Positions 1 to 21,322 of a stretch of 32,000 nt of DNA are shown here, piece after piece. The notes beneath the pieces were generated by a model. The model saw only the letters and a program-made list of their open reading frames with translations, did not search any database and was not told where the DNA came from. Source of the stretch: Vibrio vulnificus CMCP6 (lineage in GTDB: Bacteria; Pseudomonadota; Gammaproteobacteria; Enterobacterales; Vibrionaceae); contig NC_004460.2 of the NCBI RefSeq assembly GCF_000039765.1, forward strand, positions 450,001-482,000, given 5' to 3'. The translations under genes were made by a program, and so were the position numbers. How positions within the stretch are numbered: position 1 is the stretch's first letter; every line of letters starts with the position of its first letter.

Positions 1-327
1 GCGTAAAACATTGGCTGTTGCGGCTGGGTATCGTTCACGCCGGCTTTTATTGCAGGGGAGTCCTCTTTGGCACATAAACCATGCGGGTCTACCCACATCA
101 CCGGATTGGGGGCATATTGATAATGGTTTATACCGCCTAAAAGCCCAATCGGGTCTGGCTGAATAAAGCGTCCTGTTCTTGGATCGTAGTAACGGGCAAG
201 GTTGTAGTGTAGCCCTGTTTCCGCATCGTGATATTGCCCTTGAAAACGGAGTGGGTTGCCAACGCTCTCCACCTCAATGTGTGCACGTCCGTATGTGTCG
301 TAACGTGCTTGCCAAACAACGGAGCCA
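1..327 (-). pseudogene. Orphan 5'-truncated rhs fragment: end of the Rhs core including the DPxGL demarcation motif, then the start of a toxin tip that runs off the left window edge
   Basis: nt 1-327 are colinear with nt 5880-6205 of the full-length rhs; I saw no indels and only scattered substitutions. My translation: NGSVVWQARYDTYGRAHIEVESVGNPLRFQGQYHDAETGLHYNLARYYDPRTGRFIQPDPIGLLGGINHYQYAPNPVMWVDPHGLCAKEDSPAIKAGVNDTQPQQPMFYA-. There is an in-frame TGA at 348-350 and no start codon at the homology boundary. Confidence 0.8.
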
Positions 328-487
328 TTGACAGTAACGCAGAGTACTCATCTCAAAAACTAACTATTTGGGGACTTTTGAGGTTGGATGACAAACGTTA
401 AAGCTAAGCCCGCCAACCGACTTAGCAGACTTTGCGGCATTCATGTTGTTTGAGAGTAGAAGTTATTAGATATTAACAAATAAGTCA

Positions 488-829
488 TTATTCGTTGTTC
501 AAGCTTTCGATTTCATCAGCAAGGGCTTGATCCCACTCGAAGTCAATATTGAAACTTCCTGAGGGGTCGAGGCTAAATGTAGCTCTGTTCCAATTGTTAT
601 CAGTTCCACTTGTTACTGCATGAAGCTCTTCAAATGCTTCAAATATTTCAAAAGGAACATCGAAATATTTTGGCTGTTCAGGTGATAAGGTTGGAATGTA
701 TTCACTTTGAAATTCGATAGAACCCTCTGTAAGTTCTGCTCGAATTATTGAGATTGACCAATCATCATCTATAGAATTGACAATTGATTGAGCTATGGTT
801 AAGTACAAATTTTCTACGCTATTTTCCAT
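488..829 (-). CDS. Putative immunity protein for the orphan nuclease tip (YezG/DUF600-like)
   Basis: 113-aa acidic ORF. Its ATG (829) overlaps the last 11 nt of the upstream toxin ORF (stop at 819). The patterns IDDDWSISIIRAEL and W-NRATFSLDPSGSFNIDFEWD resemble the YezG/DUF600 immunity family that partners YeeF/EsaD-class nucleases. This is a recalled family pattern, not a search result. Confidence 0.6.
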   Translation of the reverse strand: MENSVENLYLTIAQSIVNSIDDDWSISIIRAELTEGSIEFQSEYIPTLSPEQPKYFDVPFEIFEAFEELHAVTSGTDNNWNRATFSLDPSGSFNIDFEWDQALADEIESLNNE

Positions 830-1718
830 TGGGCATATTCCTTAAAAAACGCTTCACTTTTTTACCATCAATTTCATATATTATTTCAAATGCAGTGGGC
901 CTTTTGCTTTCGCCTTTAAAAATCGAGTTTATCTCAACTTTAACTTCTTTAGGTGGGTTTCCACTAAGTGCTTCCGCCCATTTATTTTCCATCCGTTTCC
1001 AAGCACCTTTGTTTAAGTTGCCATTCATCGCTGCATAGTTTATTTGCTCACCAGGACCTTTAAAGATTGATGCGATAAGGTGACCGCCTTCATCATCAAC
1101 TAGGCCATCCTTAATACCATCTGTTTTCCCAGCTTTGCTTTGCTGATAAGTGTTTCTATCTACTTTGTTGAGTTCGAGTTTACCAGAAACGGATTTCACT
1201 CTGCCAAGTTCATCCGTTTTATATGAGTAAGAGCCCACTTTATACGTTGCGTTTGCTTCAAGTTTGCCATTGAGAGCCTTGTTCCATCCACCTTTGCTTC
1301 CTTGATCTAATTCAATTGTATGCGAAGTTGCCCCCGGCAACTCACTCCCTTTCGGTGCGTCCAGTTGTTTGGCAACTGATGTTAGGCTATCACCTCCCTT
1401 TGCTACTGTCTCCGTAGCTACATTTAGTGCTTTATTGCCATATTTTGCTGCTGTCACTCCCTGCCCAACGATTGGCAAGCCAGACAATAAAGACAAGCCA
1501 CTATTCAAAAAGTCGCCGCGCAGCGCATACAGCCCCGCATTAATTAAATCCGCTACAATGCCAATTCCAGGAGCCATACCGGCACCATCAAGCGCCAAGT
1601 GTATTGCCTCAAGTGCAGCACCTTTGTATTCATCTGGCGCTATGGCATGTAACTGATAAGTCGGGCTGGCTGTTTTCACCGCACTGGCGTAATTGCCTGA
1701 GCCCATCGCGTAAAACAT
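819..1718 (-). CDS. Orphan Rhs C-terminal toxin module with an Endonuclease_NS_2 / His-Me finger-like DNase domain
   Basis: 299-aa ORF. The first 29 aa (MFYAMGSGNYASAVKTASPTYQLHAIAPD) are near-identical to Rhs residues 1151-1179. The C-terminus reads DDEGGHLIASIFKGPGEQINYAAMNGNLNKGAWKRMENKWAEAL...KEVKVEINSIFKGESKRPTAFEIIYEIDGK. This matches the D-GGHLIA / N-LN-G-W-x-MEN-W / RP-x-F-x-Y-IDG pattern of YeeF/EsaD-type nucleases (PF13930 as I recall it). An in-frame TAA lies 3 codons upstream of the ATG. Confidence 0.75.
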   Translation of the reverse strand: MFYAMGSGNYASAVKTASPTYQLHAIAPDEYKGAALEAIHLALDGAGMAPGIGIVADLINAGLYALRGDFLNSGLSLLSGLPIVGQGVTAAKYGNKALNVATETVAKGGDSLTSVAKQLDAPKGSELPGATSHTIELDQGSKGGWNKALNGKLEANATYKVGSYSYKTDELGRVKSVSGKLELNKVDRNTYQQSKAGKTDGIKDGLVDDEGGHLIASIFKGPGEQINYAAMNGNLNKGAWKRMENKWAEALSGNPPKEVKVEINSIFKGESKRPTAFEIIYEIDGKKVKRFLRNMPNGK

Positions 1719-1727
1719 TGGCTTTTA
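1633..1727. repeat. About 95-nt homology block shared with the main rhs (5805-5899)
   Basis: Eye alignment of tctggcgctatggcatgtaactgataagtcgggctggctgttttcacc[g/a]cactggcgtaattgcctgagcccatcgcgtaaaacat[t/c]ggct[t/g]tt gives 3 substitutions. The sequences diverge completely on both sides. Confidence 0.85.
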
Positions 1728-1822
1728 CATCGCAGCTGACACAGAGATCACCTATGCTGGACGCTTATAGCTTTTATGGACGAGACGATGACCTTAGTCG
1801 ACAAGGTTTCTTCAAACTGCCG

Positions 1823-2038
1823 GGTACTAAGATCGCCTCTTTGAGAAAGGAACCGTAGATAACGCAGGTGCAGCTTTCAGAGAACCTGGGGATTTCCCAG
1901 CAGTACATGCAGGCATTTGAAGCTGGCCGCAGGAAAGTACCTTCATCCAAACAGCTAAAGCAGGTGGAACAGATCAGTTATTTGCCGAAGGCGAAACAGA
2001 AATTTGTGATGGATATGCGGTATACGGTGATACTGTAA
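1823..2038 (+). pseudogene. XRE/Cro-C1-type helix-turn-helix regulator remnant with an in-frame amber codon
   Basis: One plus-strand frame reads GTKIASLRKEP*ITQVQLSENLGISQQYMQAFEAGRRKVPSSKQLKQVEQISYLPKAKQKFVMDMRYTVIL*. The TAG is at 1856-1858 and the TAA at 2036-2038. This is the classic pattern (I-x-x-LR-x-x-x-x-x-TQ-x-x-L-x-x-x-LG-I/V-S-x-x-x-x-x-x-x-E-x-G), broken by a stop where a Gly is normally found. Confidence 0.5.
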
Positions 2039-2115
2039 CAGATGTGGAAAGCCCCACCACTGGATTCAAACGCTGGGGCTTAGGATTGTATTAAAATAAA
2101 GACAGGTTATCTATT

Positions 2116-2595
2116 TTATCGTTCAACTTTCAACAAGTAATCGTATTCACCAAAATTAGGATATTTATCATAATTCCCACTTACGTCTGTCGAAGAGTTC
2201 ACTTCTGCGAGACTTTGCGGGTTAAATGATTGTTTTCTTATTATGAGCTGACCGCTCTCATTAAAAATATACGAGTTACCCAACTTCACTTGATCCTTAT
2301 CACCGTCAAAATATCGATGTGTAGCCATTGATAAAAATAACTTTCCTAGCTCAACTTCTTTGAAATGATAGGACAGACTTTCCCTTAACAAGTCATCTAA
2401 AAAAGTAACGCCAACAAAGCGTGTACTCCCTGCTACATCAATAACAGCATAAGGCCGCTCACGATCATTCACCAATACAGTATATGTTCTGCATTCATCG
2501 TGCGCTTGCCTTGCTTGCTCTTCACTCCACATTTCAGTTGGACGCTTTTTCGACCAAAACCAAGACTTGCAATAAAAATAGTTAAATTTGTTCAT
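2116..2595 (-). CDS. Hypothetical 159-aa protein; candidate orphan immunity gene
   Basis: Intact ORF (MNKFNYFYCKSWFWSKKRPTEMW...). It starts 2 nt after the stop of a short open frame that looks like a toxin 3' remnant. I recognise no family; the assignment rests on context only. Confidence 0.4.
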   Translation of the reverse strand: MNKFNYFYCKSWFWSKKRPTEMWSEEQARQAHDECRTYTVLVNDRERPYAVIDVAGSTRFVGVTFLDDLLRESLSYHFKEVELGKLFLSMATHRYFDGDKDQVKLGNSYIFNESGQLIIRKQSFNPQSLAEVNSSTDVSGNYDKYPNFGEYDYLLKVER

Positions 2596-2597
2596 AC

Positions 2598-2699
2598 TTA
2601 ATAAATCCTGCCATCTATATCCCTAATAACTACACCAGCATTATCTGCGGCGTCTATTGTGATTTGCGATATCGGGTTATTCTGAACTGGAACCTCAAG
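2598..2699 (-). pseudogene. 3' remnant of an upstream gene (possibly a toxin C-terminus), cut at the IS boundary
   Basis: The frame is open from the IS left end: LEVPVQNNPISQITIDAADNAGVVIRDIDGRIY*. Its stop (TAA, 2598-2600) lies 2 nt before the ATG of the 159-aa ORF. There is no start codon. Confidence 0.35.
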
Positions 2700-2701
2700 A
2701 A

Positions 2702-2719
2702 GGCTTTGTTGCGTAATTC
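2702..2719. repeat. IS terminal inverted repeat (left)
   Basis: GGCTTTGTTGCGTAATTC pairs with 3736-3753. Confidence 0.85.
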
Positions 2720-2755
2720 AGTACAAAAGTAAAGCGACTTCATTTTGCGCTTTTT

Positions 2756-3674
2756 TTAGCCAATACGACAAGTTTTAGGCATACCTAACCCTGTAAGCTT
2801 GTTTAACGCTTTTATCATGGCGTAAGTCTCACCAACCTGAGCGTTGTAGTCTCTCAGACTTAATTTTCCACCTAGCAACTGCTTCACCCTATACATCGCT
2901 GTTTCTGACAGAGAACGCTTGTGGTAACCATACCTCTGTTTCCAGTGTTTATTTGAACCATACAATTTCTGGCAGGCCACACCAAGATTTCGGGGGTGAC
3001 CTCGCTCCCAGAATGCGGCTCCGTCTCGTGGAGGAATGAGTGCGACTGCTCGCTTTATACGGATAGCTTCGTAACAGGCCTTGGTGTCATAAGCACCGTC
3101 ACCTGATATTTCAACGATCTTTCTGCGTGTTTGCTTAAGTAGATTTGGCAGCACTTCAGCATCAGTCACGTTCGATAAACTCAATTCCGCAGCGATAATT
3201 TCGTGGGTATTCGTATCAACGGCAAGATGAAGCTTTCGCCAAACTCTACGCTTACCGTCTGTGCCATGCTTTTTGACTTTCCATTCCCCTTCGCCGTAAA
3301 CCTTGAGACCAGTAGCATCGATGGCCAAATGTCTTATCACACCATACGTTTGAGGTTTGAATGACACTTCAACCTGTTTAGCTCGGCGACTGATACAGAT
3401 GTAATGTGGACACTGCTATGGAACACGAGCAAGCAGAAATACGGAGTCAATGAATCCTTGCAGAGTTCGTAACGGCATTGAAAAGATGCTTCATCATCAA
3501 CGCAGTTGTGATCGCCAGGTCGCTAAAGAAACGAGGTCTTCCACGCTTTTTTTGTTTGCTTTGTTTCCACTCTCTTATCGCTTCTTCATCAATCCAGAAA
3601 ATGAGTGAACCACGGTTGATTAAGGCTTTGTTGTACTGTTTCCAGTTCGTTGTTTTGTAGCGAGGTTTCGGCAT
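2756..3674 (-). pseudogene. IS903-like DDE transposase, disrupted by a frameshift and an in-frame stop
   Basis: The N-terminal piece (3447-3674) reads YKTTNWKQYNKALINRGSLIFWIDEEAI...RGRPRFFSDLAITTALMMKHLF. The C-terminal piece (2756-3367) reads IDATGLKVYGEGEWKVKKHG...WRKLHLAVD...GDGAYDT...SETAMYRVKQLLGG. The two pieces are in different frames, with the shift near 3478. The continuing frame reads MPLRTLQGFIDSVFLLARVP*QCPHY, with a TAG at 3416-3418. Confidence 0.8.
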
Positions 3675-3735
3675 GAGACTAGGGGAATAAACTTACTTAA
3701 CCGATCAGATCGTAACCTTCTGATTTAGTTCCCTC

Positions 3736-3753
3736 GAATTACGCAACAAAGTC
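3736..3753. repeat. IS terminal inverted repeat (right)
   Basis: GAATTACGCAACAAAGTC is the reverse complement of GACTTTGTTGCGTAATTC. Confidence 0.85.
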
Positions 3754-3808
3754 AATTGGCCCCTTAATTACTTCAAGCAACGAACTCAAACTATTATTAT
3801 TGCTCATC

Positions 3809-4318
3809 TCACTTATATTGCTCACCCAGTTTTTTCAACAAGTCCAAAAAACCGAGATCATAAAGAAAATGGTAGCTAAACGAAATTCGTGTAGGCATAT
3901 AAGAGTTACCAACATCCAACGGACTTTGACGTGAGAGATTGACAAGATGATAACCTTGTGTCGCCGCTTGTACACAAAGCATTTCTCCGTCGACATCCTC
4001 ATCGGCACTGGTCATCGCTCCCGCATGTAAGCCGCCGGCCGCCGGCGGCTTGCGGAACTCCTCTAGCGCTTTGGGGAACCAGCTAAGAACCCTGAGAGGA
4101 AAGTCGAATTGTTTGCAATAATATTGATGCGTTTTTAAGTTCCTATACGCTGTCAAGATTGATAAATAATTATCTCGTTTCACAAGTACATATAAGTCTT
4201 CCGCCTCAGTAGTGTCCAATAGACGACCTATTTCAATGGCGCCCGTTGGCAACTGATCATGCTGAGTAATCGTTGGTAAAGCGGGTTGTACCGGGTATTT
4301 TTGTATGTCGTAGCTCAT
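3809..4318 (-). CDS. Hypothetical 169-aa protein; candidate orphan immunity gene
   Basis: Intact ORF (MSYDIQKYPVQPALPTITQHDQ...). Its ATG overlaps (ATGA) the stop of a 52-codon start-less open frame upstream. I recognise no family. Confidence 0.4.
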   Translation of the reverse strand: MSYDIQKYPVQPALPTITQHDQLPTGAIEIGRLLDTTEAEDLYVLVKRDNYLSILTAYRNLKTHQYYCKQFDFPLRVLSWFPKALEEFRKPPAAGGLHAGAMTSADEDVDGEMLCVQAATQGYHLVNLSRQSPLDVGNSYMPTRISFSYHFLYDLGFLDLLKKLGEQYK

Positions 4319-4470
4319 AACGGTTGAAGATCCTTAATAATGATGACAATAGCATCAGCGTCGTGTAATTCTTTTAAATTAACAGTCTTACGCTCAAAAT
4401 TCAGCGTTTCTACCGCGCCGAACTGCTTCGCACTATTAGGGTTAAGCTCTTTCGTCAAGCCGTTACCCAC
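4315..4470 (-). pseudogene. Short open frame, possibly the 3' remnant of a displaced toxin gene
   Basis: My translation is (V)GNGLTKELNPNSAKQFGAVETLNFERKTVNLKELHDADAIVIIIKDLQPL*. It has no ATG (GTG at 4468-4470 at best). Its TGA overlaps the ATG of the 169-aa ORF, which is the typical geometry of a toxin-immunity junction. Confidence 0.3.
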
Positions 4471-4475
4471 GTAAT

Positions 4476-4904
4476 CTACCTTTTTATAGCAGTTCCTTTA
4501 ATGATGATCTCCTCATCTATTTGCTCAATTGATTCTAAAGAGTCGACGACATAACTAGCTACGTCATTATCTTCATCAAAAACAATACCAAGAATATCGA
4601 ACTTATGGTAAGCATAAAGATAGTCATAGAGATATGAGCCCTCGATATCGATGAACTCCAGTAATGATGGATAATTTGTTGCTCCAGGATACGGAGGATC
4701 GAATTCACCAGTGATTTGGTCATCTTCTTTAAGATCTTCAACACCGTCATCGTACAAAGGGGTCAATTTTTCTAATAATTCGCTTTTAACTATTTTTATT
4801 TCGTAGGATAAAGTCTGTAAGCCTTGCCCTTTTCCAAAGCTTAACTGGCAAAAAGTCATCGCATTAGAATCTATGTTATTTTTATTTACTTTAAGCGAAA
4901 TCAT
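4476..4904 (-). CDS. Putative cognate immunity protein of the Rhs nucleotidyltransferase-like tip
   Basis: 142-aa, strongly acidic ORF. It starts 2 nt after the rhs stop (rhs TAA at 4907-4909, ATG at 4902-4904). It is AT-rich like the toxin tip. I recognise no family. Confidence 0.6.
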   Translation of the reverse strand: MISLKVNKNNIDSNAMTFCQLSFGKGQGLQTLSYEIKIVKSELLEKLTPLYDDGVEDLKEDDQITGEFDPPYPGATNYPSLLEFIDIEGSYLYDYLYAYHKFDILGIVFDEDNDVASYVVDSLESIEQIDEEIIIKGTAIKR

Positions 4905-4906
4905 TT

Positions 4907-7900
4907 TTAACCTCCTGGAGGTAAGATAATAATTTTTCCATCGGGAGCTATTGTTATTGACCCCGAAGGAGTATACGGCTGACCGGCTTTCAAGTCTCCC
5001 CCTGCTCTAATTCCGGCTCTTTGGAAAAACTGTTCTGGCGTTGTCATTGTTTCGATTGTTTGCGTACTTTTACCGGGAACAATCGTCAACTCTTCCATTT
5101 TTAAGAAATGGGGGTTGTCGGCTGTCGTTTTATTGATGTTTTTGATAATTCTTTGAGCTTGTTTCTCTGATAAACTACCAAAACCAACATCAATATCGCT
5201 ACCTTTACCGAAATCTCCTCTTATTCGACTTCCACCAAATACCACCGTTGAATCTCTTTTTAGCCCCTGTTCTAAAATCAGAGTAGCTTGTTCAGTTGTT
5301 AAATCAGGTACATGTTTTGATAAAAACGCAGACTGCTCTGTAATACCAGAAGTTCTTAATGTTGTTTGCTCAGGGAATGTATTAAATACCGATTTATCTG
5401 TCCAACGTTTGTCTGGAACTACCCCTTTCCCCACAGACTTCATAGCAACTCTACCGCCCCATGCGGTCATCACTATTTCTGGGGCTAACTGCACGAGTGT
5501 TGCCGCCAAGGGGGAACCTGTATGTTCTAGTGTTGCACTGCCAAGCCCTTCCATTGTATCTGCATAGGCTTCAACATATCCAGATACGTTGTTAATAATT
5601 TGATGTGCGCCCCGAGACTGCGGAACATAGCTATATTTCTCTTGAATCGATTGAATGAGCGCAGAAGATTGCTCTAAATCACCAAATGTGAGTTGCGCTA
5701 ACCCAGCTAAGCCAGCCACCGCGTCAACGGCTGTGTTGTAAGCACCTGCCGCCAGCATTTCTGTCGCACCCAACGCATAATCAATGCCGACTTGCTGAAC
5801 AGCGTCTGGCGCTATGGCATGTAACTGATAAGTCGGGCTGGCTGTTTTCACCACACTGGCGTAATTGCCTGAGCCCATCGCGTAAAACATCGGCTGTTGC
5901 GGCTGGGTATCGTTCACGCCAGCTTGTATTGCAGGAGAGCCCTCTTTGGCACATAAGCCATGCGGATCTACCCACATCACCGGATTGGGGGCATATTGAT
6001 AATGGTTTATGCCGCCTAACAGCCCAATCGGGTCTGGCTGAATAAAGCGCTCGGTTCTTGGGTCGTAGTAACGGGCAAGGTTGTAGTGTAGCCCTGTTTC
6101 CACATCGTGATATTGCCCTTGAAAACGGAGCGGGTTGCCAACGCTCTCCACCTCAATGTGCGCACGTCCGTATGTGTCGTAACGGGCTTGCCAAACAACC
6201 GAGCCTTGTTCATCCACCAGAGCCAAAGGTGTGCCAATTTGGTCACATTGGTAGAAGTAGCATTGCTCATCTTCCACTAGCATGATTGGCGTGTGACTAT
6301 TGGGCAAATAAAAATACCAACGGTACTTTCCGTTGTGATATTCACCAATTAACTGGCTCCCCTGCCAGATAAACTCGGTAGTGCCAGTTTCTGTCACTTT
6401 TCGACTACGACGCCCCAGCGCATCGTATTCAAAATGAGAAAGTTCCCCATCACTGTCGACTTGTACGAGCTGATTGAGTGCGTTGAAGCATCGATACTGC
6501 GCGCTCCCCTCGCCCTCTGCACAAATCTGATTGCCATGAGCGTCATACTGGAAGCGCCAACCGCTGTGTTCCACCAATCTGTCACCCATTAGTAGACAAT
6601 CCGCTTCACTTGGATTGCCAAAACTGTCGAATCGGTAGGTTTCTTCCTGATGCGCGGTTTTGGCGCGAGTGAGCTGACCTAGGCTGTCGTATTGGTAATG
6701 TGATGCACCCTGTACACTGTCGATAATAATGGCGAGCTGGTGAGCGGTATCATAATGGTATTTCCTGCTTCGGTTGTTCCACTGTTGTTGAGACAGTCGG
6801 CCAATACCATCAAACCGTTTCTGTTCTTGCTCTTGTCCATAGTAAACCGAGCAGATTCGTCCCATGGAATCATAGTCAAAATGCACACAAGGCGGCTTCT
6901 CACCCATTGAAATAGCCGCTAATTGGCCGTACGTGGTATACGCATAGTTCACTTGGCTGCCATCTGCTAGAAGCAACTGGCTAAGTTGCCCTGATGCGTT
7001 ATGGTGATAACCAATCCTGTGCTGCCCCTGAATTTGTTGAGATAGCTGACCACCAGAAGAGTATTGGTACTGAATAGTGCACGCTCGGTTGGTTGCCAAA
7101 CGCAGTTGCGACCCGTGACTAAACTGGTATCGGTTTTCTGACACGCCATGCGTCGCCCCCGCCTTGACCAGACAAAGATTGCCTTCAGCATCATAGGAAA
7201 AGACAACTTGACGTTCACAACTTTCTAAACGGGAGAGTCTTCCGGCTAAATCATAGTGATACTGAGTAGTGACACCATCAAAATTCTGCGTTTCAGTGAC
7301 ATAGTGGTCTGGCGACAGCGTAAACAGAAAATCACATGCATCGCTGCGAGAAATTCCAACGAGGTTCCTTTCTCCATCATAACGAAAAGCAAGCTCTCCA
7401 CCATCGGGGCGGATGATTGCATTCGGCTGTGCCAGCAAGCCCCACTCAATCGTGCTCGTTCCTGCTGGGGTAATAAGGTGTGTTACTCGGCCGCATTCGT
7501 CATACCGGTAACGCACTTCATGCTGTAAGTCATCCTCTTTACTGTAGGTAAAGGTTTTGGTCAGATGGCCATAGGTATCATGCTCAAATGCGGTCACCAT
7601 TCCGTTGGGAAATGCAATGCCATCGAGCCGATGTTCTTGGTTGTAACTGTAACGTAGCAATGTTTGATTGGCTTGATGAGCGATCATCTGATGGGCATCA
7701 TTCCACCACCATTGATGGCTTTCACCATCCGATGCTTTACGTTCGATCAGACGGCCAAACTTGTCATAACGACAATCCGTCCGTTTACCGCTTGAATCGC
7801 TCAAAGCCGTCAGTAAACCTAATATATTGTACTGGCGTTGCTCTAATGCGCCGTTTGGATAACGAATGGCCGTTTGCTGACCTAGTGCGTTGTATTGATA

Positions 7901-9340
7901 ACCTGTTGTGGCTCCACTGGAATGACGCTCTTTTGTTTTCTGACCATACGCATTGTATTGGTAGCACACCGTCTCACCGCTGGGTTGTATCGCGCGCACG
8001 AGTCGTCCGTTGTCATCGTATTCCCAGCGCCACTCACGCCCTTCTGGGCTGCGTTTTGAGCTTAGTTTGCCATGGGCATTGTGTTCAAATGACCATTGAT
8101 GGCCCAAGGTATCGCGATAACTTGACGTTTCATCTTGGTAGTGAAATTGATAATCGTAAGTGCCGTCATCGCCATAATTACGAAGACATTTGGCTTCCGG
8201 CCCTTCTGCTGACCACTCAAAATAGTGACTAAATCCCGACTGACGCTGCCTTCTTTTGAGCAAATGACTCTCTGAGTAGAAGTAGCTTTCTGTTTGACCA
8301 TGCTGATTGGTTGCCGCCGTTAAATTGTCTTGCGCGTCATATTGATAGCTCGCCAACACCTTCCCGGAATCGGGGAGCCGGACTTCAACCAGATGGCCTC
8401 TTCGATCATATTGAAGCTCTGCACAGTGCTGTTTGTTGTAGCGAATGCCTACCAAACGCTGTTTTGAGGAATAATCCAGATCAATTAAATCAATGGCTGT
8501 CGTTCTGATTTGTTTAATTAACCAAGTTTCATTCTTCCGTTCAAACTTGTACTGGGTACCATTCGCTAACGTGACCAGCAAATAACCATTTTCGTGATGG
8601 AAGCAACTTGCTCCTACGTAAGTTTGGTAACTCACCGCACCTTGGTTCACGACAGGAAACGCAATGACGTCGCCCATCTCATCGCAAAAATGCCAACCCG
8701 TAAGCTCTCCTTTTTCAGAGTGTACTTCGTGGATTTGATAGTCGAAGCAATGTCGCCAACCATGCCCTAAGCCAGTGTCTAAAAGACAAAACGAGGAACG
8801 ATAGGTGCGAGAAAAACTCAATCGATGGTGAAGTGTTAAGTCACACAGTGTTAGGATTTCTTCACCCGTCACCATAGAAACCGGATCGCCGGCTTTTTCA
8901 TGATGTTTACTGCTTTCGGCTTGCGCTTCGTCGCAAGTTTTATCATCACTGGTTTGGCTCTCTGTTTTCCCATCTGACGCGGGTTTTGACTCTTGGTCTT
9001 GAGGTGGTGGTGTTAAAATCGTTGGTTTTAATGATGCTGGCGTCACGCTTTCAAACTGAACGACATGCAGCCTTCTTGCTGCCAGTGCCGCACTCAGTGA
9101 CGCAACGTAATCTTCGAAGACTTTTTCATCGCGAAAGGGACTTTGGGGTATATTATCTCCCAACCAACCGCTTACCTCGGCGATGTCTTCTAACGAAGCA
9201 AGCTTAAATTTTTCGACAAACTGTTGAGCAACCAACTCTGTCGAGAAGTGCAGTGTCTTCCCTTCAGCGATTGGCTGGTCTGAGAAATAGTGTAACGATC
9301 CATCGTAGGCAGAGATTTTGACTATCCGTTGTCCATTCAT
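4907..9340 (-). CDS. rhs: Rhs/YD-repeat T6SS effector (1477 aa) with a polymorphic C-terminal toxin
   Basis: It contains many YD repeats (YQYDAQDNL, YQYNAYGQ, YRYDECGRV, YHYDLAGRL, FEYDALGRR and others). A plug-like GDPVSMVTGEE lies at aa 151-161. The core-end signature is RYYDPRTERFIQPDPIGLLGGINHYQYAPNPVMWVDPHGL, with DPHGL at nt 5954-5968. Its ATG directly abuts the stop of the upstream gene. Confidence 0.95.
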   Translation of the reverse strand: MNGQRIVKISAYDGSLHYFSDQPIAEGKTLHFSTELVAQQFVEKFKLASLEDIAEVSGWLGDNIPQSPFRDEKVFEDYVASLSAALAARRLHVVQFESVTPASLKPTILTPPPQDQESKPASDGKTESQTSDDKTCDEAQAESSKHHEKAGDPVSMVTGEEILTLCDLTLHHRLSFSRTYRSSFCLLDTGLGHGWRHCFDYQIHEVHSEKGELTGWHFCDEMGDVIAFPVVNQGAVSYQTYVGASCFHHENGYLLVTLANGTQYKFERKNETWLIKQIRTTAIDLIDLDYSSKQRLVGIRYNKQHCAELQYDRRGHLVEVRLPDSGKVLASYQYDAQDNLTAATNQHGQTESYFYSESHLLKRRQRQSGFSHYFEWSAEGPEAKCLRNYGDDGTYDYQFHYQDETSSYRDTLGHQWSFEHNAHGKLSSKRSPEGREWRWEYDDNGRLVRAIQPSGETVCYQYNAYGQKTKERHSSGATTGYQYNALGQQTAIRYPNGALEQRQYNILGLLTALSDSSGKRTDCRYDKFGRLIERKASDGESHQWWWNDAHQMIAHQANQTLLRYSYNQEHRLDGIAFPNGMVTAFEHDTYGHLTKTFTYSKEDDLQHEVRYRYDECGRVTHLITPAGTSTIEWGLLAQPNAIIRPDGGELAFRYDGERNLVGISRSDACDFLFTLSPDHYVTETQNFDGVTTQYHYDLAGRLSRLESCERQVVFSYDAEGNLCLVKAGATHGVSENRYQFSHGSQLRLATNRACTIQYQYSSGGQLSQQIQGQHRIGYHHNASGQLSQLLLADGSQVNYAYTTYGQLAAISMGEKPPCVHFDYDSMGRICSVYYGQEQEQKRFDGIGRLSQQQWNNRSRKYHYDTAHQLAIIIDSVQGASHYQYDSLGQLTRAKTAHQEETYRFDSFGNPSEADCLLMGDRLVEHSGWRFQYDAHGNQICAEGEGSAQYRCFNALNQLVQVDSDGELSHFEYDALGRRSRKVTETGTTEFIWQGSQLIGEYHNGKYRWYFYLPNSHTPIMLVEDEQCYFYQCDQIGTPLALVDEQGSVVWQARYDTYGRAHIEVESVGNPLRFQGQYHDVETGLHYNLARYYDPRTERFIQPDPIGLLGGINHYQYAPNPVMWVDPHGLCAKEGSPAIQAGVNDTQPQQPMFYAMGSGNYASVVKTASPTYQLHAIAPDAVQQVGIDYALGATEMLAAGAYNTAVDAVAGLAGLAQLTFGDLEQSSALIQSIQEKYSYVPQSRGAHQIINNVSGYVEAYADTMEGLGSATLEHTGSPLAATLVQLAPEIVMTAWGGRVAMKSVGKGVVPDKRWTDKSVFNTFPEQTTLRTSGITEQSAFLSKHVPDLTTEQATLILEQGLKRDSTVVFGGSRIRGDFGKGSDIDVGFGSLSEKQAQRIIKNINKTTADNPHFLKMEELTIVPGKSTQTIETMTTPEQFFQRAGIRAGGDLKAGQPYTPSGSITIAPDGKIIILPPGG
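4910..5953 (-). other. Rhs C-terminal tip (aa 1130-1477): a conserved 50-aa leader, an Ala/Gly-rich hydrophobic region, then a nucleotidyltransferase-fold-like domain
   Basis: This is the sequence after DPHGL. VVFGGSRIRGDFGKGSDIDVGF (nt 5180-5245) gives G1370-S1371-x10-D1382-x-D1384. That is the hG[GS]x9-13Dh[DE]h signature of pol-beta/MNT-type nucleotidyltransferases. Confidence 0.55.
5805..6205. repeat. Segment of the main rhs that is duplicated in the orphan region (5805-5899 with 1633-1727; 5880-6205 with 1-327)
   Basis: Direct eye alignment of the three copies. All are in the same (minus) orientation. Confidence 0.85.
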
Positions 9341-10249
9341 TTACTTATCTTCCGAACGACTGCTCCAACGATACAAAATACCCACAGCTAACCCCTGCTC
9401 TTCAGCATCAATCTGTAAGACATGAAAGGGTTTCTGTGGATCTTGCAACTGTTTTTGATAGGCATGAAGCGCCTTATATAACCCGGTTCCAGCACCGAGT
9501 TGCCCCACCAATGTGCTGGAGAAAAAATAGCCTGTGTTTTCTGTTACCCAAGGCGAAAAACGGTGTAGTTGGGAATGCCAAATAGGCATATCAGCACCGT
9601 CTAGAGGTAACATGAGTTCCGTTAATTCTCTTTGACACATTTGAGACAACGACGCCATCACTCTGGGAATGCCACTTTCATAGTGGCTGGAATAACGGTC
9701 AAACTGAACTTTCGATGGTTCTAGACCGTATGTAGAGCGTGCAATATGCACCAAGAGTAATGAGTCAGTTTTTATGTCTTCAAAAAGTTGATATTCACTG
9801 CCTACACAAAATAGAGACGAAGTATCCACAGACAGCACCCAGCACTCATGGCGCTCAAGACAATGCATGACACGCTCGAAGGCAACCAAAAAAGAGGCAT
9901 TCCCATAGGGGTAACAAAATATAGAACGCTGACCGCTAGGCGTGTCACCCAGTACCTCGTTGAGTTTCTTCACCAGCTTCAGTACCTCATCTTGTGTCGC
10001 TAGTTCAGGCAGCAAGAAGAAAATCGTCGCTTGTTTCGGGATCCTAGAAATGTCTACTGAATAATGCGCAATCAGCTCCTCCAAACGAACCAATAGAGAC
10101 GCTGATTGATGTGCGAATGTTTTATAGCTATTTCCAGAATAAAACAGATCATCGCACCATTGAGGTGGCTCAATCGTTCCTAAATTATCTTGAGTCGCCA
10201 GATTGTGAGAGCCAACATAAACAGCGTGTGGATTAAGTTCGAGCGCCAT
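9341..10249 (-). CDS. Unrecognised 302-aa accessory protein between PAAR and Rhs; possibly a degenerate ketosynthase/thiolase-like adaptor
   Basis: The ORF is wedged with zero spacing on both sides (PAAR TAG|ATG at 10249/10250; its TAA|ATG of rhs at 9340/9341). VLSVDTSSLFCVG resembles the KS active-site motif VDTACSSSL without the Cys. There is a Gly-rich LVGQLGAGTGLY near the C-terminus. I saw no DUF4123 (fRfYDPR) or DUF1795-like size or pattern. Confidence 0.35.
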   Translation of the reverse strand: MALELNPHAVYVGSHNLATQDNLGTIEPPQWCDDLFYSGNSYKTFAHQSASLLVRLEELIAHYSVDISRIPKQATIFFLLPELATQDEVLKLVKKLNEVLGDTPSGQRSIFCYPYGNASFLVAFERVMHCLERHECWVLSVDTSSLFCVGSEYQLFEDIKTDSLLLVHIARSTYGLEPSKVQFDRYSSHYESGIPRVMASLSQMCQRELTELMLPLDGADMPIWHSQLHRFSPWVTENTGYFFSSTLVGQLGAGTGLYKALHAYQKQLQDPQKPFHVLQIDAEEQGLAVGILYRWSSRSEDK

Positions 10250-10540
10250 CTAATCTCCAATCAACACGGTAGGTACGCCAACCAATATTTTGCCACCGTG
10301 AGAAGTGCTATCACCCATCCGAGCGGCTGGCTTGCCGTTAATTTTTACTGACGATGAACCGCTTGAAATACTGTCGGGAGGGCCAACACATATCAGCTTG
10401 TCTCCTTCTCTCGCGGCAGGTATACCTCCTATTTTCACATTCGGCGAGCCCGTGACGACAGGGCCTCCAACATGGGGAATCTTCCCGGTCTTTTTCGGAC
10501 AGACGTGAAAACAACCAATGACAGATGCAGGTTTACCCAT
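10250..10540 (-). CDS. PAAR-domain spike-tip protein (96 aa)
   Basis: The sequence contains GGIPAAREGD...CVGPPDSISSGSSSVKINGKPAARMGDSTSHGG, i.e. two PAAR motifs. The size is typical and it sits directly downstream of vgrG. Confidence 0.9.
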   Translation of the reverse strand: MGKPASVIGCFHVCPKKTGKIPHVGGPVVTGSPNVKIGGIPAAREGDKLICVGPPDSISSGSSSVKINGKPAARMGDSTSHGGKILVGVPTVLIGD

Positions 10541-10549
10541 GTGTTCTTC

Positions 10550-12385
10550 CTAGTTCAGTGAAATCTGGCCAGCTTTTAAGGCAATCGAGGCACCATTAAT
10601 GGCTATTTTGTTGCCTTTAATATTGATCTCCCCCGAACTCGACATCTGAATCGAAGCGCCGCCCACTTTAATTTCAATGCTTTTGCCTGCGGTCAGAGAA
10701 AGGACTTCGCCAATATCGAGTGAATAGTTTTTCCCAATCTTCCCAGAGACGTTTTGTCCAACCTCCTCCGTTAGGTTGTTGGTAATTTTCTGGGTCTTAT
10801 TGTTTTCAACTAGGACATCAGCGGAATCTTCGACGACCATTTGGAAGTTCTTTTCCGCATGAAGATAGACATGTTCCTCACCCGGTTTATCTTCAAAGCG
10901 TAACTCGTTGAAGTTACTCGCCCCTTTTTCTACAGACTGGCTACGGTAACCACTTTGGGTTTTCTTCTCTGGCAACGAAAAAGGTGGCGCTTGCGTCCCA
11001 TTGTAAAGAGACCCTGTCACCACTGGCTGATCCGGATCCCCATTGATAAATTCAACGATGACCTCTTGCCCTACTCTTGGCAGAAATGAGCTTCCCCAGC
11101 CATTCCCTGCAATTTGTTGTGCGACACGTATCCAGCACGAACTCGTCGTATCAAACTTACCTTCACGATCCCAGTGAAATTGAACTTTTATCCGCCCATA
11201 TTTGTCGACGTAGATTTCACCTTGCTTATTACCTGTCACAACCGCAGTTTGGATTCCGCGAATAACTGGCCTCACAAAGTTAACCGCCGGACGATGCACT
11301 TTCCCTGACTCAATGCAGGTAAAATAACTCCTAACACCTTGATTTGAAGGGCCACCATGACCTACTTGGTTGAAAACAGCTGCGTTGATAACAATCGATG
11401 AGAGCACGAACTCTTTGCCGATTCGGCTAGGGTCTTCATGCTTACCAAATTTGAAACTTCTGCCGACCGCAAAGGAGCGGCAACTCGACTCTCCAGAACA
11501 AACGTATGCGTTTTGCTGTAATGATTCGATCGTGTGGGTATTTCTCGTTTTGTACTGATCACCCGACTCCGCTTCACCCAGATATTCATAATGCTCGCTG
11601 CTCGGAACGGTAAATAAGGATTCGCTCCCTTTTGCCGTATTGTTAGGATGTGAAGCTGGCTTTTTCATATCATAGCCACTTTTGTGACTGCGCGTGATCA
11701 CCATCGATTGAGCTTCATGCCACGAAGAGATATGACCCAACTCTGCGGTACCTGAATTGAAATCAATTAAAAATTCAGCACCTGGCTTGTAATAGCTGGC
11801 ATCATCAAATATCTCGATCACATGTGAAGATTTAGTATGGCTGAAACAGAACGACAGCCCTTCCTCAGATAAGAGTCTTTTAACAAACTGTAGATCCGAT
11901 TCTTCGTACTGAACTTTGTAGTTATACTTGGCATAGCTTTTGGTCAGAGAAAAAGAAAAGTCGACGCCATGCTCACCAAGAATTAATGAAATGATTTCTT
12001 TTATATCTTTATTTTGAAAGATTCGGCTGTTGATTTTGTAGTCCGCAAAATTCAATTTTGGCACAACAACAAGCTCAATGTTTTTGTAGTTTTCACCATC
12101 TTCAAATTTGGTCACTCGGCTTCCTGCTAGTGTTGCCTTTGCAACAAACCCATGGAAGTATCTCGGTTCCAACATGACTTGGCTATTATTATCCATTTTG
12201 ATAATAACTGGCTGACCCACGATTTGATTCAGTTCGCCTTTTCGACCATTAAAATAAGCATAAACTCGCAATGAAAATAGCTCTGACATTTCTTCTCTAT
12301 ATTCAAAGGAATTGAGAATAATCGCATCTTTCCCATAAGGCGTGGAAATATTTATAAATTTATTATCTTGAGTCGCTTTTTTCAT
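10550..12385 (-). CDS. vgrG: VgrG (TssI) spike protein, no C-terminal effector extension
   Basis: The N-terminus is gp27-like (ISTPYGKDAIILNSFEYREEMSELFSLRVYAY). A gp5 OB-like region follows (VVTGNKQGEIYVDKYGRIKVQFHWDR...GWGSSFLPRVGQEVIVEFINGDPDQPVVTGSLYN). The C-terminal beta-helix repeats end in ALKAGQISLN. The ORF track starts at a TTG (12406); the first ATG is at 12385. Confidence 0.93.
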   Translation of the reverse strand: MKKATQDNKFINISTPYGKDAIILNSFEYREEMSELFSLRVYAYFNGRKGELNQIVGQPVIIKMDNNSQVMLEPRYFHGFVAKATLAGSRVTKFEDGENYKNIELVVVPKLNFADYKINSRIFQNKDIKEIISLILGEHGVDFSFSLTKSYAKYNYKVQYEESDLQFVKRLLSEEGLSFCFSHTKSSHVIEIFDDASYYKPGAEFLIDFNSGTAELGHISSWHEAQSMVITRSHKSGYDMKKPASHPNNTAKGSESLFTVPSSEHYEYLGEAESGDQYKTRNTHTIESLQQNAYVCSGESSCRSFAVGRSFKFGKHEDPSRIGKEFVLSSIVINAAVFNQVGHGGPSNQGVRSYFTCIESGKVHRPAVNFVRPVIRGIQTAVVTGNKQGEIYVDKYGRIKVQFHWDREGKFDTTSSCWIRVAQQIAGNGWGSSFLPRVGQEVIVEFINGDPDQPVVTGSLYNGTQAPPFSLPEKKTQSGYRSQSVEKGASNFNELRFEDKPGEEHVYLHAEKNFQMVVEDSADVLVENNKTQKITNNLTEEVGQNVSGKIGKNYSLDIGEVLSLTAGKSIEIKVGGASIQMSSSGEINIKGNKIAINGASIALKAGQISLN

Positions 12386-12439
12386 TACAAACTTCTTTAT
12401 AAACAAATAAGGAGGGCACTTTCGAACCCTCCAAATGAT

Positions 12440-12919
12440 TTACATTTGTTGACCTTTAACACCGCTGTAACCGTATACCAACGGAGCAGATGTGTTGTTT
12501 TTGTCATCAGTAGGCGTCACAGTCATCATCATCTCTGTGTAAGAGATGGTGATTGTTTCAATTGGACGGTCGTCTTGAATTGACACTGCATAGTTAGAAA
12601 TCATGGCATCCGTTAGTTGAATTTTCATGATTTCTTCGATTTTTTCACCCTGCTTAGTGATATGGAATACAGCGGGTTTACCCTTACCAATCGTGGCTTC
12701 TTTGAACAGATCTGGGGATGCTTTGTCTTGAAGTTTGGTAATGGTCATATCGTAAAGACGAGTAGAGCTTGCTTCACGATCCATTGCGGTACCAGTATAA
12801 GAAGAAATTTCACGACCTACACTCCAATCAACTGAAAGAAGAGTAATCATATCCTTGTACTGTTCTGCGGTAGCTTCACCTTTAATATCAGCATATTTCA
12901 GGTAGGTATTTGACTGCAT
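12440..12919 (-). CDS. hcp: Hcp (TssD) tube protein
   Basis: 159 aa, MQSNTYLKYADIKGEAT...DREASSTRLYDMTITKLQDKASPDLFKEA. The size and N-terminal I-K-G-E pattern are Hcp-like. It lies between clpV and vgrG. An AGGAGA Shine-Dalgarno sits 5 nt upstream. Confidence 0.85.
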   Translation of the reverse strand: MQSNTYLKYADIKGEATAEQYKDMITLLSVDWSVGREISSYTGTAMDREASSTRLYDMTITKLQDKASPDLFKEATIGKGKPAVFHITKQGEKIEEIMKIQLTDAMISNYAVSIQDDRPIETITISYTEMMMTVTPTDDKNNTSAPLVYGYSGVKGQQM

Positions 12920-19784: not shown

Positions 19785-21278
19785 TTATACAATATGCTCA
19801 GGAGACAACTCCGTAATCAACTTGATCGATGAAACCATTTGATCCAGTTGAAAATGGGGCCGTAGGTGGATCACCGAATAATATTTTCCTGGGCTACCTA
19901 GCTTTTCAGTGACTTTTATTTTGGCTTCGTTAAGCGGATATTTTGCTCTCAGTTCATCCGAAGCCTCATCAGACGCAGTGGTATATTTATGAAGCCACGC
20001 CTGAAAATCTCGTTCTATCGATTGGGCATCTTGATAGCTGCCAATCCGATCTCTTCCCATCACTTTTAAATAGTGAGCAATTCTTGAAACACATAAGGTG
20101 TATTGCAACATCGAAGACAAACGTGCATTTACACTCGCTCCCTTGGAAGCAAACTGCTGAGGTTTGTGCAAAGAGATGTTCGACGTAAAGCTAACAAACG
20201 GCGTTTCAGCGACGGGAGACAGAGGGATAAATCCACAATCTGCCAACTCTTGCTCTCTTTTTTCCGTTATTTTTAAGTTGAGAGGTGCGCGATATCGCCC
20301 TCCCTTTCCTGGTAAATCAACCTGACATAAAGAAGGAGGCTGGATAATGCCTTGAGAGTAGTCCCCTGTTTTATGTCCACGTATGTGTGTAAACCAACCA
20401 TGCTCTTGAAATGCTCTAACAATGACCGCGGCAAAGGAATAGGCGGCATTTCCCCACAACAAATCTTGGTGCGAATCTCGAACTCGTTCGTTATAAACAA
20501 ACGAATCCGATCTCGAGCCGTCACTTTGATATGGCTGACGATACAAAAGGTTGGGTAGCGTTAAACCAATAAACCGAACATCTTCTTCGGCTCGTAGTCG
20601 TTTCCAACTCACGTATTCATTTTGCTCAAATTGGGCATAGACGTTCGTCATCGACGCGATGTTTTCAAAGTAATCTGAACCAAAAACACTCGGTTCGACC
20701 GACATAATGAAAGGGCTAAACGCCGCTGCTGCCGACTGCGCAATTTTCCTTAATATGTTGATTTCTCTTTCAACCACCATGGCGTTTTGACCGCCACAGA
20801 GATAATAGTCGCCAATCAATAAACCAAACGGCTCTCCCCCTGGCATCGAGTATTCGTTTTGATAGACCAACTTAAACAGCGCGGATTGATCGAACTCTAT
20901 CGCTCGCTCACTGTCTTTCTTCAGCTCTTCCCATGTACAAGATAGGACTTTGACCTTTACAAGCTCTCCGGCATTGTGATCTTTCTGCTGCACAAGGTAA
21001 TTTAAGCCTCGCCACGTCGCTTCAAGCTTTTGCATTTGTCGGTGATGAAGAATCTCATCCAGTTGAGCGCTCACTTCCCTATCAATCGATTCAATGGCAC
21101 TGATGATGCTGTGAACAAACTCTTGTTTCGTTTTCGCTCCAGAAATCTCAACCCAATAGCTCACCATCTGCGTCATCGTCTTGGCATCAAGAAAATGCGC
21201 CATCCAAATACCATTCTCCAAAGCAGACTCTGGTGTCGGTAAATCGTGGGAAAGTTGCTCAATTTCGATGAAATTCAT
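19785..21278 (-). CDS. Second, divergent TssC (VipB/EvpB-family) sheath-like paralog
   Basis: It aligns by eye along its length with the upstream TssC: [19 protein letters not shown] vs [19 protein letters not shown]; GGEPFGLLIGDY vs [12 protein letters not shown]; AAAAFSPF vs AAAGFSPF; IAHYLKVMGRDRIGSY vs [16 protein letters not shown]; LRAKYPLNEAKIKV vs [14 protein letters not shown]. The first ATG is at 21278. The track start at 21392 is a TTG inside tssC. Confidence 0.85.
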   Translation of the reverse strand: MNFIEIEQLSHDLPTPESALENGIWMAHFLDAKTMTQMVSYWVEISGAKTKQEFVHSIISAIESIDREVSAQLDEILHHRQMQKLEATWRGLNYLVQQKDHNAGELVKVKVLSCTWEELKKDSERAIEFDQSALFKLVYQNEYSMPGGEPFGLLIGDYYLCGGQNAMVVEREINILRKIAQSAAAAFSPFIMSVEPSVFGSDYFENIASMTNVYAQFEQNEYVSWKRLRAEEDVRFIGLTLPNLLYRQPYQSDGSRSDSFVYNERVRDSHQDLLWGNAAYSFAAVIVRAFQEHGWFTHIRGHKTGDYSQGIIQPPSLCQVDLPGKGGRYRAPLNLKITEKREQELADCGFIPLSPVAETPFVSFTSNISLHKPQQFASKGASVNARLSSMLQYTLCVSRIAHYLKVMGRDRIGSYQDAQSIERDFQAWLHKYTTASDEASDELRAKYPLNEAKIKVTEKLGSPGKYYSVIHLRPHFQLDQMVSSIKLITELSPEHIV

Positions 21279-21322
21279 ATCAATATGAGGGACTGGCTTG
21301 TTATGCCAGCCCCTAGTCTCTC

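Follow-up and report, generated by a model that had tools for sequence, protein, structure and literature searches.

The variable 3′ end of the rhs effector locus linked to type VI secretion system 2 (T6SS2) of Vibrio vulnificus was analyzed in a stretch of 32,000 nucleotides (nt) of the CMCP6 genome (contig NC_004460.2, positions 450,001 to 482,000; hereafter the window). The Rhs protein encoded here is identical to AAO07379.1 of V. vulnificus CMCP6, and the locus is of the CMCP6 type. The array at this end consists of the nucleotidyltransferase (NTase)-like toxin tip of the main rhs gene with a gene of 142 amino acids (aa) behind it, several small open reading frames (ORFs), a degenerate IS5 insertion sequence (IS) element, an intact orphan pair of nuclease and immunity gene, and a dead rhs remnant. 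The rhs gene, the orphan tip, the remnant, and the immunity genes are all co-oriented on the minus strand, and the G+C content falls from 0.47–0.51 in the rhs core to 0.37–0.41 in the tips. The array is probably the record of tips displaced one after another from a constant Rhs core. Its principal features are as follows:

4907..9340, minus strand: main rhs gene, 1477 aa (RHS_repeat 1e-61, RHS 2e-14, DUF6531 4e-13; Pfam)

5880..6208, minus strand: part of the main gene that recurs in the remnant, from the core end (DPIGL...DPHGL) into the leader

5805..5898, minus strand: copy of the 94-nt repeat (the "handle") in the main gene, from 8 nt before codon M1151 through codon D1179

4476..4904, minus strand: putative immunity gene of the main NTase-like toxin, 142 aa, assigned by position only

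1633..1726, minus strand: second handle copy, overlapping the start of the orphan nuclease ORF, with sharp boundaries on both sides

819..1718, minus strand: orphan toxin tip, 299 aa (Endonuclea_NS_2, E = 1.2e-36, profile positions 2–132 of 132)

488..829, minus strand: YezG-like immunity gene, 113 aa (PF04634, E = 4.7e-9; 37 bits against a cut-off of 21.7)

1..330, minus strand: 5′ part of the dead rhs remnant, comprising the last ~106 core codons and the start of the leader; 94.2% identical to 5880–6208

The main Rhs protein runs from an N-terminal DUF6531 domain through YD/RHS repeats and the RHS core to a leader, a pre-toxin region (region B), and the C-terminal NTase-like domain. Read in translation, the core ends in PVMWVDPHGL (aa 1120–1129, around nt 5954), an instance of the PxxxxDPxGL motif, with DPIGL upstream. 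In Rhs/Tc proteins, self-cleavage is expected directly after this motif. The leader of ~50 residues that follows it (aa 1130–1179) reads CAKE...MFYAMGSGNYAS.VKTASPTYQLHAIAPD, and region B then starts with AVQQVGIDY.... The match of the toxin domain to NTP_transf_2 scored 20.4 bits in the whole Rhs protein, under the cut-off of 21, and 24.2 bits, over the cut-off, when the last 197 aa were scanned alone; the same profile was matched in 11 of 40 homologues of the domain. Residues G90, S91, R92, S101, and D102 of the domain are invariant and D104 is nearly so. The pattern in the C-terminal ~150 aa (4907–5500), an invariant GSR...SD.D, is a Pol-beta-type nucleotidyltransferase signature. The family comprises 155 representative clusters, in which the domain is always C-terminal, in Rhs, CdiA-like, extracellular contractile injection system (eCIS), PT-HINT, or VgrG proteins. 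No dedicated Pfam family exists for it, and a sequence search against solved structures gave no match for the main tip. The 142-aa gene begins 3 nt past the rhs stop codon and matched no family in Pfam or NCBIfam.

The orphan is a co-oriented ORF that lacks the Rhs N terminus and core, carries a different toxin domain, and has an immunity gene of its own. Its start methionine is equivalent to M1151 of the Rhs protein, and the two sequences diverge after "HAIAPD." The leader is followed by a second type of pre-toxin region (region A, EYKGAALEAIHLALDGAG...) and by a complete DNA/RNA non-specific endonuclease domain (Endonuclease_NS_2, PF13930; 126 bits against a cut-off of 27). The YezG-like gene overlaps the toxin stop codon by 11 nt, so that both partners of an Endonuclease_NS_2/YezG pair are recognized at family level in adjacent genes. 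All arrays examined have this immunity gene intact, at 98%–99% identity, even where the toxin is broken. The ratio of non-synonymous to synonymous substitution rates (dN/dS) of the orphan toxin is 0.06–0.10 between strains; compared with the orphan of one of the other V. vulnificus loci read, L005, it shows 15 synonymous and 5 non-synonymous changes, a ratio of 0.09.

Such a pair might be expressed from within the array as a toxin-antitoxin-like module, with the leader supplying the start codon. The orphan ATG is an internal methionine codon of the main gene, the 11-nt overlap would permit translational coupling, the toxin ORF is under purifying selection, and rhs-CT (C-terminal tip) orphans of Salmonella provide a precedent (PMC7043789). 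In Salmonella, however, the internal promoter lies within conserved sequence upstream of the PxxxxDPxGL motif (PMC7043789), and the V. vulnificus orphan has lost the motif together with everything upstream of it. An in-frame TAA is present three codons before the orphan ATG, and no obvious Shine-Dalgarno sequence was recognized in front of it. Promoter-like sites upstream of the orphan numbered 9 against 9.7 expected, which is not above chance, and the counts from a promoter and terminator scan of positions 1–5000 were at or under chance, uninformative either way on transcription of the orphan. Moreover, the toxin has been lost in other strains while the immunity gene is kept. A self-contained module of this kind is therefore very unlikely.

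Two direct repeats connect the main gene with the sequences downstream of it. In the first, the handle, the copies match over 94 nt at 97% identity with 3 mismatches and lie 4172 nt apart; the longest perfect tracts within it are 48 and 37 nt. The second, 1–330 against 5880–6208, has a spacing of 5879 (95% identity if only 1–300 and 5880–6179 are compared). The original prediction had the first ~95 nt of the orphan matching rhs with 3 substitutions before diverging, and nt 1–327 repeating rhs 5880–6205. Alignment bore out both, with the second extended by a few nucleotides. An 86-nt core of the handle is present in exactly 2 copies in the window and in none of its shuffled versions. The handle lies wholly inside the leader, which places it in the part that would be released with the toxin and not in the core. 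The leader is repeated one to four times in every array examined.

Repeats of this sort can be produced by collapsed or duplicated reads, and one draft contig (L004) does begin at the orphan start codon (window position 1718), inside the handle, which indicates that short-read assemblies can break there. The copies are 3%–7% diverged, however, and have sharp and different boundaries, and CMCP6 encodes exactly the same main Rhs protein. At least 23 contigs of independent assemblies, several of them longer than 1 Mb, encode this very orphan protein; the 23 that were read fall into three full array groups plus L004, each represented by one locus in the analysis. The full arrays among these (L001–L003) match the window at 99.4%–99.99% over 11,718 nt, and the independent assembly L001 differs by 1 base over that length. 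Because L004 starts at the orphan, it informs only on the orphan and on what lies to its left. Related arrays are also present in the CP-accession records CP044207.1 and CP027031.1. Comparison across assemblies, together with the divergence of the copies, rules out an assembly artefact, the probability of which is negligible; the repeats, whose authenticity the original prediction had left to be checked, are real.

The handle is the remainder of a longer core fragment. Strains differ in how much core and leader the nuclease orphan has kept: ~530, 395, or 94 nt, with 164 nt at the homologous junction in L006. Since other strains keep 395–530 nt of core on the same orphan, the 94-nt handle is an eroded stump. 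The CMCP6-type handle derives from the 164-nt junction at the first orphan of L006 by a deletion of 75 nt, which removed the codons from DPHGL to QPQQ.

The flank to the left of the window was recovered from loci L001–L004, the assemblies that encode an identical orphan, and it changes the interpretation of positions 1–330. These had been expected to lead into a third toxin tip. Instead, the reading frame runs on for ~231 nt beyond the window, first through the leader and then through ~55 codons of pre-toxin region B, until a stop codon closes it (...SALIQSIQ*). In full, the segment is 571 nt long, a 93% copy of window 6208–5639 with a 9-nt deletion and a 114-nt perfect tract. It contains no toxin domain and has no start codon of its own, an in-frame TGA lying just upstream, which identifies it as a dead remnant. 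Of the three co-oriented tips originally proposed, the main NTase-like tip and the orphan nuclease thus stand, and the third is this remnant, the leftover of a tip in the same pre-toxin class as the current main tip. Farther downstream are an 80-aa ORF, for which Pfam and NCBIfam scans gave no match, and the conserved chromosomal flank. The remnant and the 80-aa ORF also close the arrays of L006 and L016, which indicates that the remnant is old.

A crossover between the main gene and the remnant would yield a toxin-less Rhs of 1230 aa and delete both toxin/immunity pairs. The fusion to an off-window tip with loss of ~5.88 kb, as first predicted, is correct in its spacing (5879) but not in its product. 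The remnant has longer and better homology to the main gene than the live orphan has (a 114-nt perfect tract versus 48 and 37 nt). The leader of the orphan is identical over 91 nt to that of the remnant, and only 97.8% identical to that of the main gene. In L001 the identical stretches lie at 9996–10086 and 11703–11793, the former equivalent to window 1633–1723 and the latter off the window; a crossover between these two leaders would delete the nuclease and YezG genes, ~1.7 kb.

Array types were sampled in other assemblies by reading up to 40 of the 652 members of the Rhs cluster. Many types were observed at one shared site, which is flanked by the T6SS2 cluster and an Exo_endo_phos gene. The main proteins encoded there are 1409, 1416, 1448, 1449, 1464, 1471, 1477, 1479, 1487, and 1513/1515 aa long and have at least nine different C termini. 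Some tips diverge right after DPHGL-CAKE, the first of three levels of modularity; most share the leader, then have one of the two pre-toxin regions, and then unrelated toxin domains. The original prediction that alternative tips would be found at the same core in related genomes holds, and three tips are present both as main and as orphan. The nuclease tip is main in L010–L013 and orphan in L001–L005, L009, and L014. An Ntox15 tip with a Tdi1-like immunity gene is main in L005, where it is 93% identical over 408 aa to an orphan in L006, and a PD-(D/E)xK-like tip is found as orphan P0014 and as main P0367. Since the same tips are main in one strain and orphan in another, sequence comparison indicates that tip exchange at this core is real on the evolutionary timescale.

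Recombination is also evident in the DNA at the exchange point. In 14 distinct copies of the core-end/leader segment, taken from main and orphan positions (392 nt), 26 informative sites show a mosaic pattern of single-nucleotide polymorphisms; the four-gamete test fails in 121 of 325 pairs of informative sites, and the minimum number of recombination events (Rmin) is 13. The leader variants EGSPAIQ and EDSPAIK are shuffled relative to tip type. Use of the core-end fragments as a clock for the ancestral state, by asking whether they cluster by tip type or by position, was abandoned, the fragments being too mosaic to tell.

The leader appears, on the sequences compared, to be restricted to V. 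vulnificus and its closest relatives. In a scan of one genome per species with a degenerate leader DNA pattern, the sole exact match was in Vibrio floridensis (L018, 5306–5342), a result that says little on wider distribution. Proteins of V. navarrensis carry a diverged leader (IFYAMGSGNYSS; IFYAMGSG).

The fusion of the Rhs core to the orphan nuclease could be compared with natural proteins. A crossover within the CMCP6-type handle, performed in silico, is in frame and gives an ORF of 1449 aa with no internal stops, deleting 4172 bp with the main immunity gene included, in agreement with the original estimate of ~4.17 kb. Alleles of 1449 aa, found by a query with the full-length Rhs protein and a listing of cluster members, exist as two Rhs-nuclease forms (P0364 and P0365, 8 contigs each), both with YezG directly after the toxin. 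Both are 97.7% identical to the chimera, which differs from P0364 at 34 residues. At the DNA level, L010 7623–13536 corresponds to L001 1–5914 and L010 13443–15073 to L001 9993–11624, the 94-nt handle being precisely the overlap of the two alignments. This collinearity on both sides of the handle shows that the fusion, as predicted from CMCP6, is a real circulating allele.

The same four loci, L010–L013, differ from the CMCP6 type farther downstream. From ~15073 onward, homology to the CMCP6-type array ends 232 nt into the core fragment of the remnant, and alanine racemase, methyl-accepting chemotaxis protein, and electron transfer flavoprotein genes are present in place of Exo_endo_phos, M48 peptidase, and LemA. 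The differing downstream chromosome points to a larger rearrangement with its breakpoint inside the rhs fragment.

Elsewhere the nuclease tip is in decay. It is frameshifted in L014 and in cluster P0005 and cut to 57 aa in L015–L017 (24 contigs read), and in all of these YezG is intact despite the broken toxin. A toxin that is broken in some strains while its immunity gene remains intact argues for decay and retention of immunity rather than for a maintained switch.

These data bear directly on whether the array is an active toxin-switching device, in which the orphan is a maintained reserve weapon and crossover in the handle takes place at a useful rate within populations. The handle is in frame and the chimera a clean ORF, natural alleles of exactly the predicted structure exist, the orphan toxin is intact with a dN/dS of ~0.06–0.10, the leader recurs in every array and the core-end/leader segment is heavily mosaic, and the orphan Rhs of Salmonella Typhimurium provides an experimental precedent (PMC3967940). 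Against this, the handle is only 94 nt long, with perfect tracts of 48 and 37 nt, whereas the homology between main and orphan genes in Salmonella is 522 bp at 95% (PMC3967940), and it arose by erosion, through the 75-nt deletion from a 164-nt junction. The better homology, 571 nt with its 114-nt perfect tract, leads to a toxin-less product, and the same orphan is broken in many other strains. A recombinant would also lack the main immunity gene and be exposed to attack by its siblings unless the locus had been duplicated first; Salmonella recombinants likewise lose the main immunity gene, for which reason prior duplication of the locus was proposed (PMC3967940). Finally, L001–L003 are ancestral-type arrays, collinear with the window over all 11,718 shared nt, although the look-up with the 299-aa orphan by which they were found cannot retrieve recombinants, which encode the 1449-aa fusion instead, and consensus assemblies hide rare recombinant subpopulations. 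An active switch therefore seems unlikely. Of the toxin-switching architecture in the original prediction, the exchange of tips on the evolutionary timescale survives; the handle is a stump and does not look like a device.

A further reading would make the leader a dedicated, universal in-frame junction, with orphans re-armed recurrently in nature and the 1449-aa alleles as products rather than ancestors. This is quite unlikely. If it were true, the leader and the two pre-toxin regions would constitute three nested swap points for the T6SS2 Rhs, and the array would be a working reserve arsenal that shapes competition between strains.

The reading that best accommodates the observations, with a probability of about 0.8, is a fossil array formed by serial C-terminal displacement, kept largely for immunity and only rarely re-armable. 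It agrees with the displacement model of rhs loci (PMC2935791) and with the cassette model of polymorphic toxins (PMC3482391). New tips with their immunity genes would have recombined onto the constant Rhs core, each one displacing its predecessor downstream; cut off from the delivery domain, the displaced tip would then have started to decay. This order of events is reconstructed rather than seen. The direct repeats would be leftover pieces of core and leader carried along by the displaced tips. Since nearly all tips at the locus share the leader, it probably acts as a common in-frame crossover zone. The array would be kept mostly through its immunity genes; YezG is likely to be protective, as other V. 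vulnificus strains are expected to fire the same nuclease from the same T6SS. Both the toxin roles and the protection by YezG are predictions from sequence.

Re-arming would remain possible in principle. A RecA-type crossover in the handle would recreate a naturally occurring allele, but it should be rare, given that it deletes 4172 bp including the main immunity gene. Crossover in the handle would, moreover, compete with the presumably likelier crossover at the 571-nt remnant, which disarms Rhs.

Several points weigh against displacement and fossilization. The low dN/dS of the orphan toxin indicates constraint beyond that of a purely silent fossil, a constraint that may date from lineages in which the tip was the main one. 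Either ancestry before displacement or re-activation of the orphan could account for the 1449-aa allele. The array types are known only from the sample of up to 40 cluster members described above, and the small ORFs that were called immunity-like have no family support in Pfam or NCBIfam.

Those small ORFs lie, with an IS element and a degraded spacer, between the main gene and the orphan:

4315–4470, minus strand: small ORF of 51 aa, low G+C, no family match

3809–4318, minus strand: small ORF of 169 aa, low G+C, no family match

2704..3751, minus strand: IS5-family element of 1048 bp with perfect 16-nt terminal inverted repeats (DDE_Tnp_1_5, DDE_Tnp_1)

2116..2595, minus strand: ORF of 159 aa, low G+C, no family match

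1727..2115, plus strand: spacer upstream of the orphan, with a degraded, stop-interrupted antisense frame resembling an XRE-type helix-turn-helix (HTH) protein (…LSENLGISQQYMQAFEAGRRKVP…)

Among the array types sampled, the 51- and 169-aa ORFs are absent from all others and the 159-aa ORF is unique to the CMCP6 type. All three are possible orphan immunity genes, a label given by position only. The transposase of the IS5-like element is split into ORFs of 75 and 203 aa, the element is 76%–79% identical to elements of the ISVa2/ISVpa3 type, and its flanks, as read, showed no clear duplication of the target site. The element may have been the cause of a neighboring deletion within the array. The last 130 nt of the spacer are 86% identical to the spacer that precedes the first orphan, a different one, in L006.

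Linkage to a T6SS is evident from the genes upstream of rhs, listed below, and from the T6SS core genes in the window:

9341–10249, minus strand: conserved ORF of 302 aa between the PAAR gene and rhs

10250–10540, minus strand: PAAR gene (PAAR_motif, 2e-27; PAAR domain also recorded on the identical genes of L001–L017)

10550–12406, minus strand: vgrG (VgrG domain recorded on the identical genes of L001–L017)

12440–12919, minus strand: hcp (Hcp domain recorded on the identical genes of L001–L017)

The 302-aa ORF gave no match in Pfam and NCBIfam scans. Every V. vulnificus locus read has it in this position, and it may be an uncharacterized Rhs adaptor or chaperone. The remaining genes of the window encode ClpV, TssG, TssF, TssE, TagJ/ImpE, two TssC proteins, TssB, TssA, and a PP2C phosphatase. 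The two TssC/VipB sheath paralogues are encoded in tandem within the T6SS2 cluster (19785–21392 and 21323–22816, minus strand; ORFs of 535 and 497 aa).

In CMCP6, T6SS2 is the sole T6SS cluster and the one with kinase and phosphatase accessory genes (PMC5087951). In the same work, no role was seen for a T6SS2 mutant in an inter-species killing assay against V. fluvialis, and effectors and immunity proteins of T6SS2 were still to be identified (PMC5087951). A later paper states antibacterial activity for both V. vulnificus T6SSs (PMC13348674). A literature search found no paper that describes the Rhs arrays of V. vulnificus T6SS2.

The array is a natural example, in a well-studied human pathogen, of how an Rhs effector locus diversifies. 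It is of some value in three respects: the junction shared by the tips lies beyond the cleavage motif, the tips are modular at three levels, and one tip can be followed through a complete series of states. At a single chromosomal site of a single species, the nuclease is found armed, as an intact orphan with a long handle, as an intact orphan with an eroded handle, frameshifted, and as a stub, the immunity gene being kept in every case. The distribution of tips and immunity genes also suggests which V. vulnificus strains are mutually immune or susceptible via T6SS2, that is, predicted incompatibility groups.

The kind of system is well known, and no new mechanism is involved. The closest parallel is STM0291/STM0292 of Salmonella Typhimurium (Koskiniemi et al., 2014; PMC3967940), where a T6SS-linked rhs gene is likewise accompanied by a co-oriented orphan tip and immunity gene, a direct repeat is common to main and orphan genes, and crossover gives a chimeric Rhs with deletion of the main tip and its immunity gene. 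The V. vulnificus repeat differs in being 94 nt long and entirely downstream of PxxxxDPxGL, and the array differs in having an IS, additional small ORFs, and a dead remnant that surpasses the live orphan in its homology to the main gene. Experiments demonstrated recombination in Salmonella, whereas in V. vulnificus it is inferred from comparison between strains. The rhs arrays of enterobacteria (Jackson et al., 2009; PMC2935791) are similar in their dissociated tips downstream of the main gene, their variable core fragments, the low G+C of the tips, the attachment of a tip in one strain and its displacement in another, and the common occurrence of frameshifts and missing start codons. In contrast to those arrays, the present one belongs to a Vibrio T6SS2 and a different Rhs clade, with a DUF6531 N terminus and a separate PAAR protein, and it has three nested levels of breakpoints, which follow DPHGL-CAKE, the ~50-aa leader, and the pre-toxin region (of at least two types).

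A constant delivery gene whose 3′ end can be exchanged, through recombination, for downstream cassettes is also the arrangement of polymorphic toxin cassettes (Zhang et al., 2012; PMC3482391) and of orphan cdiA-CT/cdiI pairs (Poole et al., 2011; PMC3150448), and in these, as in V. vulnificus, the toxin precedes its immunity gene in each pair. CdiA depends on type V secretion and has a VENN boundary, whereas the boundary in V. vulnificus is the Rhs DPxGL motif followed by a lineage-specific leader. In Bacillus subtilis, YeeF-YezG is an LXG toxin/immunity pair delivered by the type VII secretion system. The orphan pair resembles it in combining Endonuclease_NS_2 (PF13930) with a YezG-like protein (PF04634) and differs from it in its Rhs/T6SS scaffold and in a modest YezG match (E = 4.7e-9). 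In the T6SS auxiliary clusters of Vibrio cholerae, sequentially displaced effector modules reportedly leave immunity genes behind that give protection from strains in which the old effector is still present, as Kirchberger et al. are said to have described in 2017. Those orphan immunity arrays are of the same genus, but they involve effectors other than Rhs proteins, and as a rule the immunity gene alone persists, whereas the V. vulnificus array keeps a complete toxin ORF.

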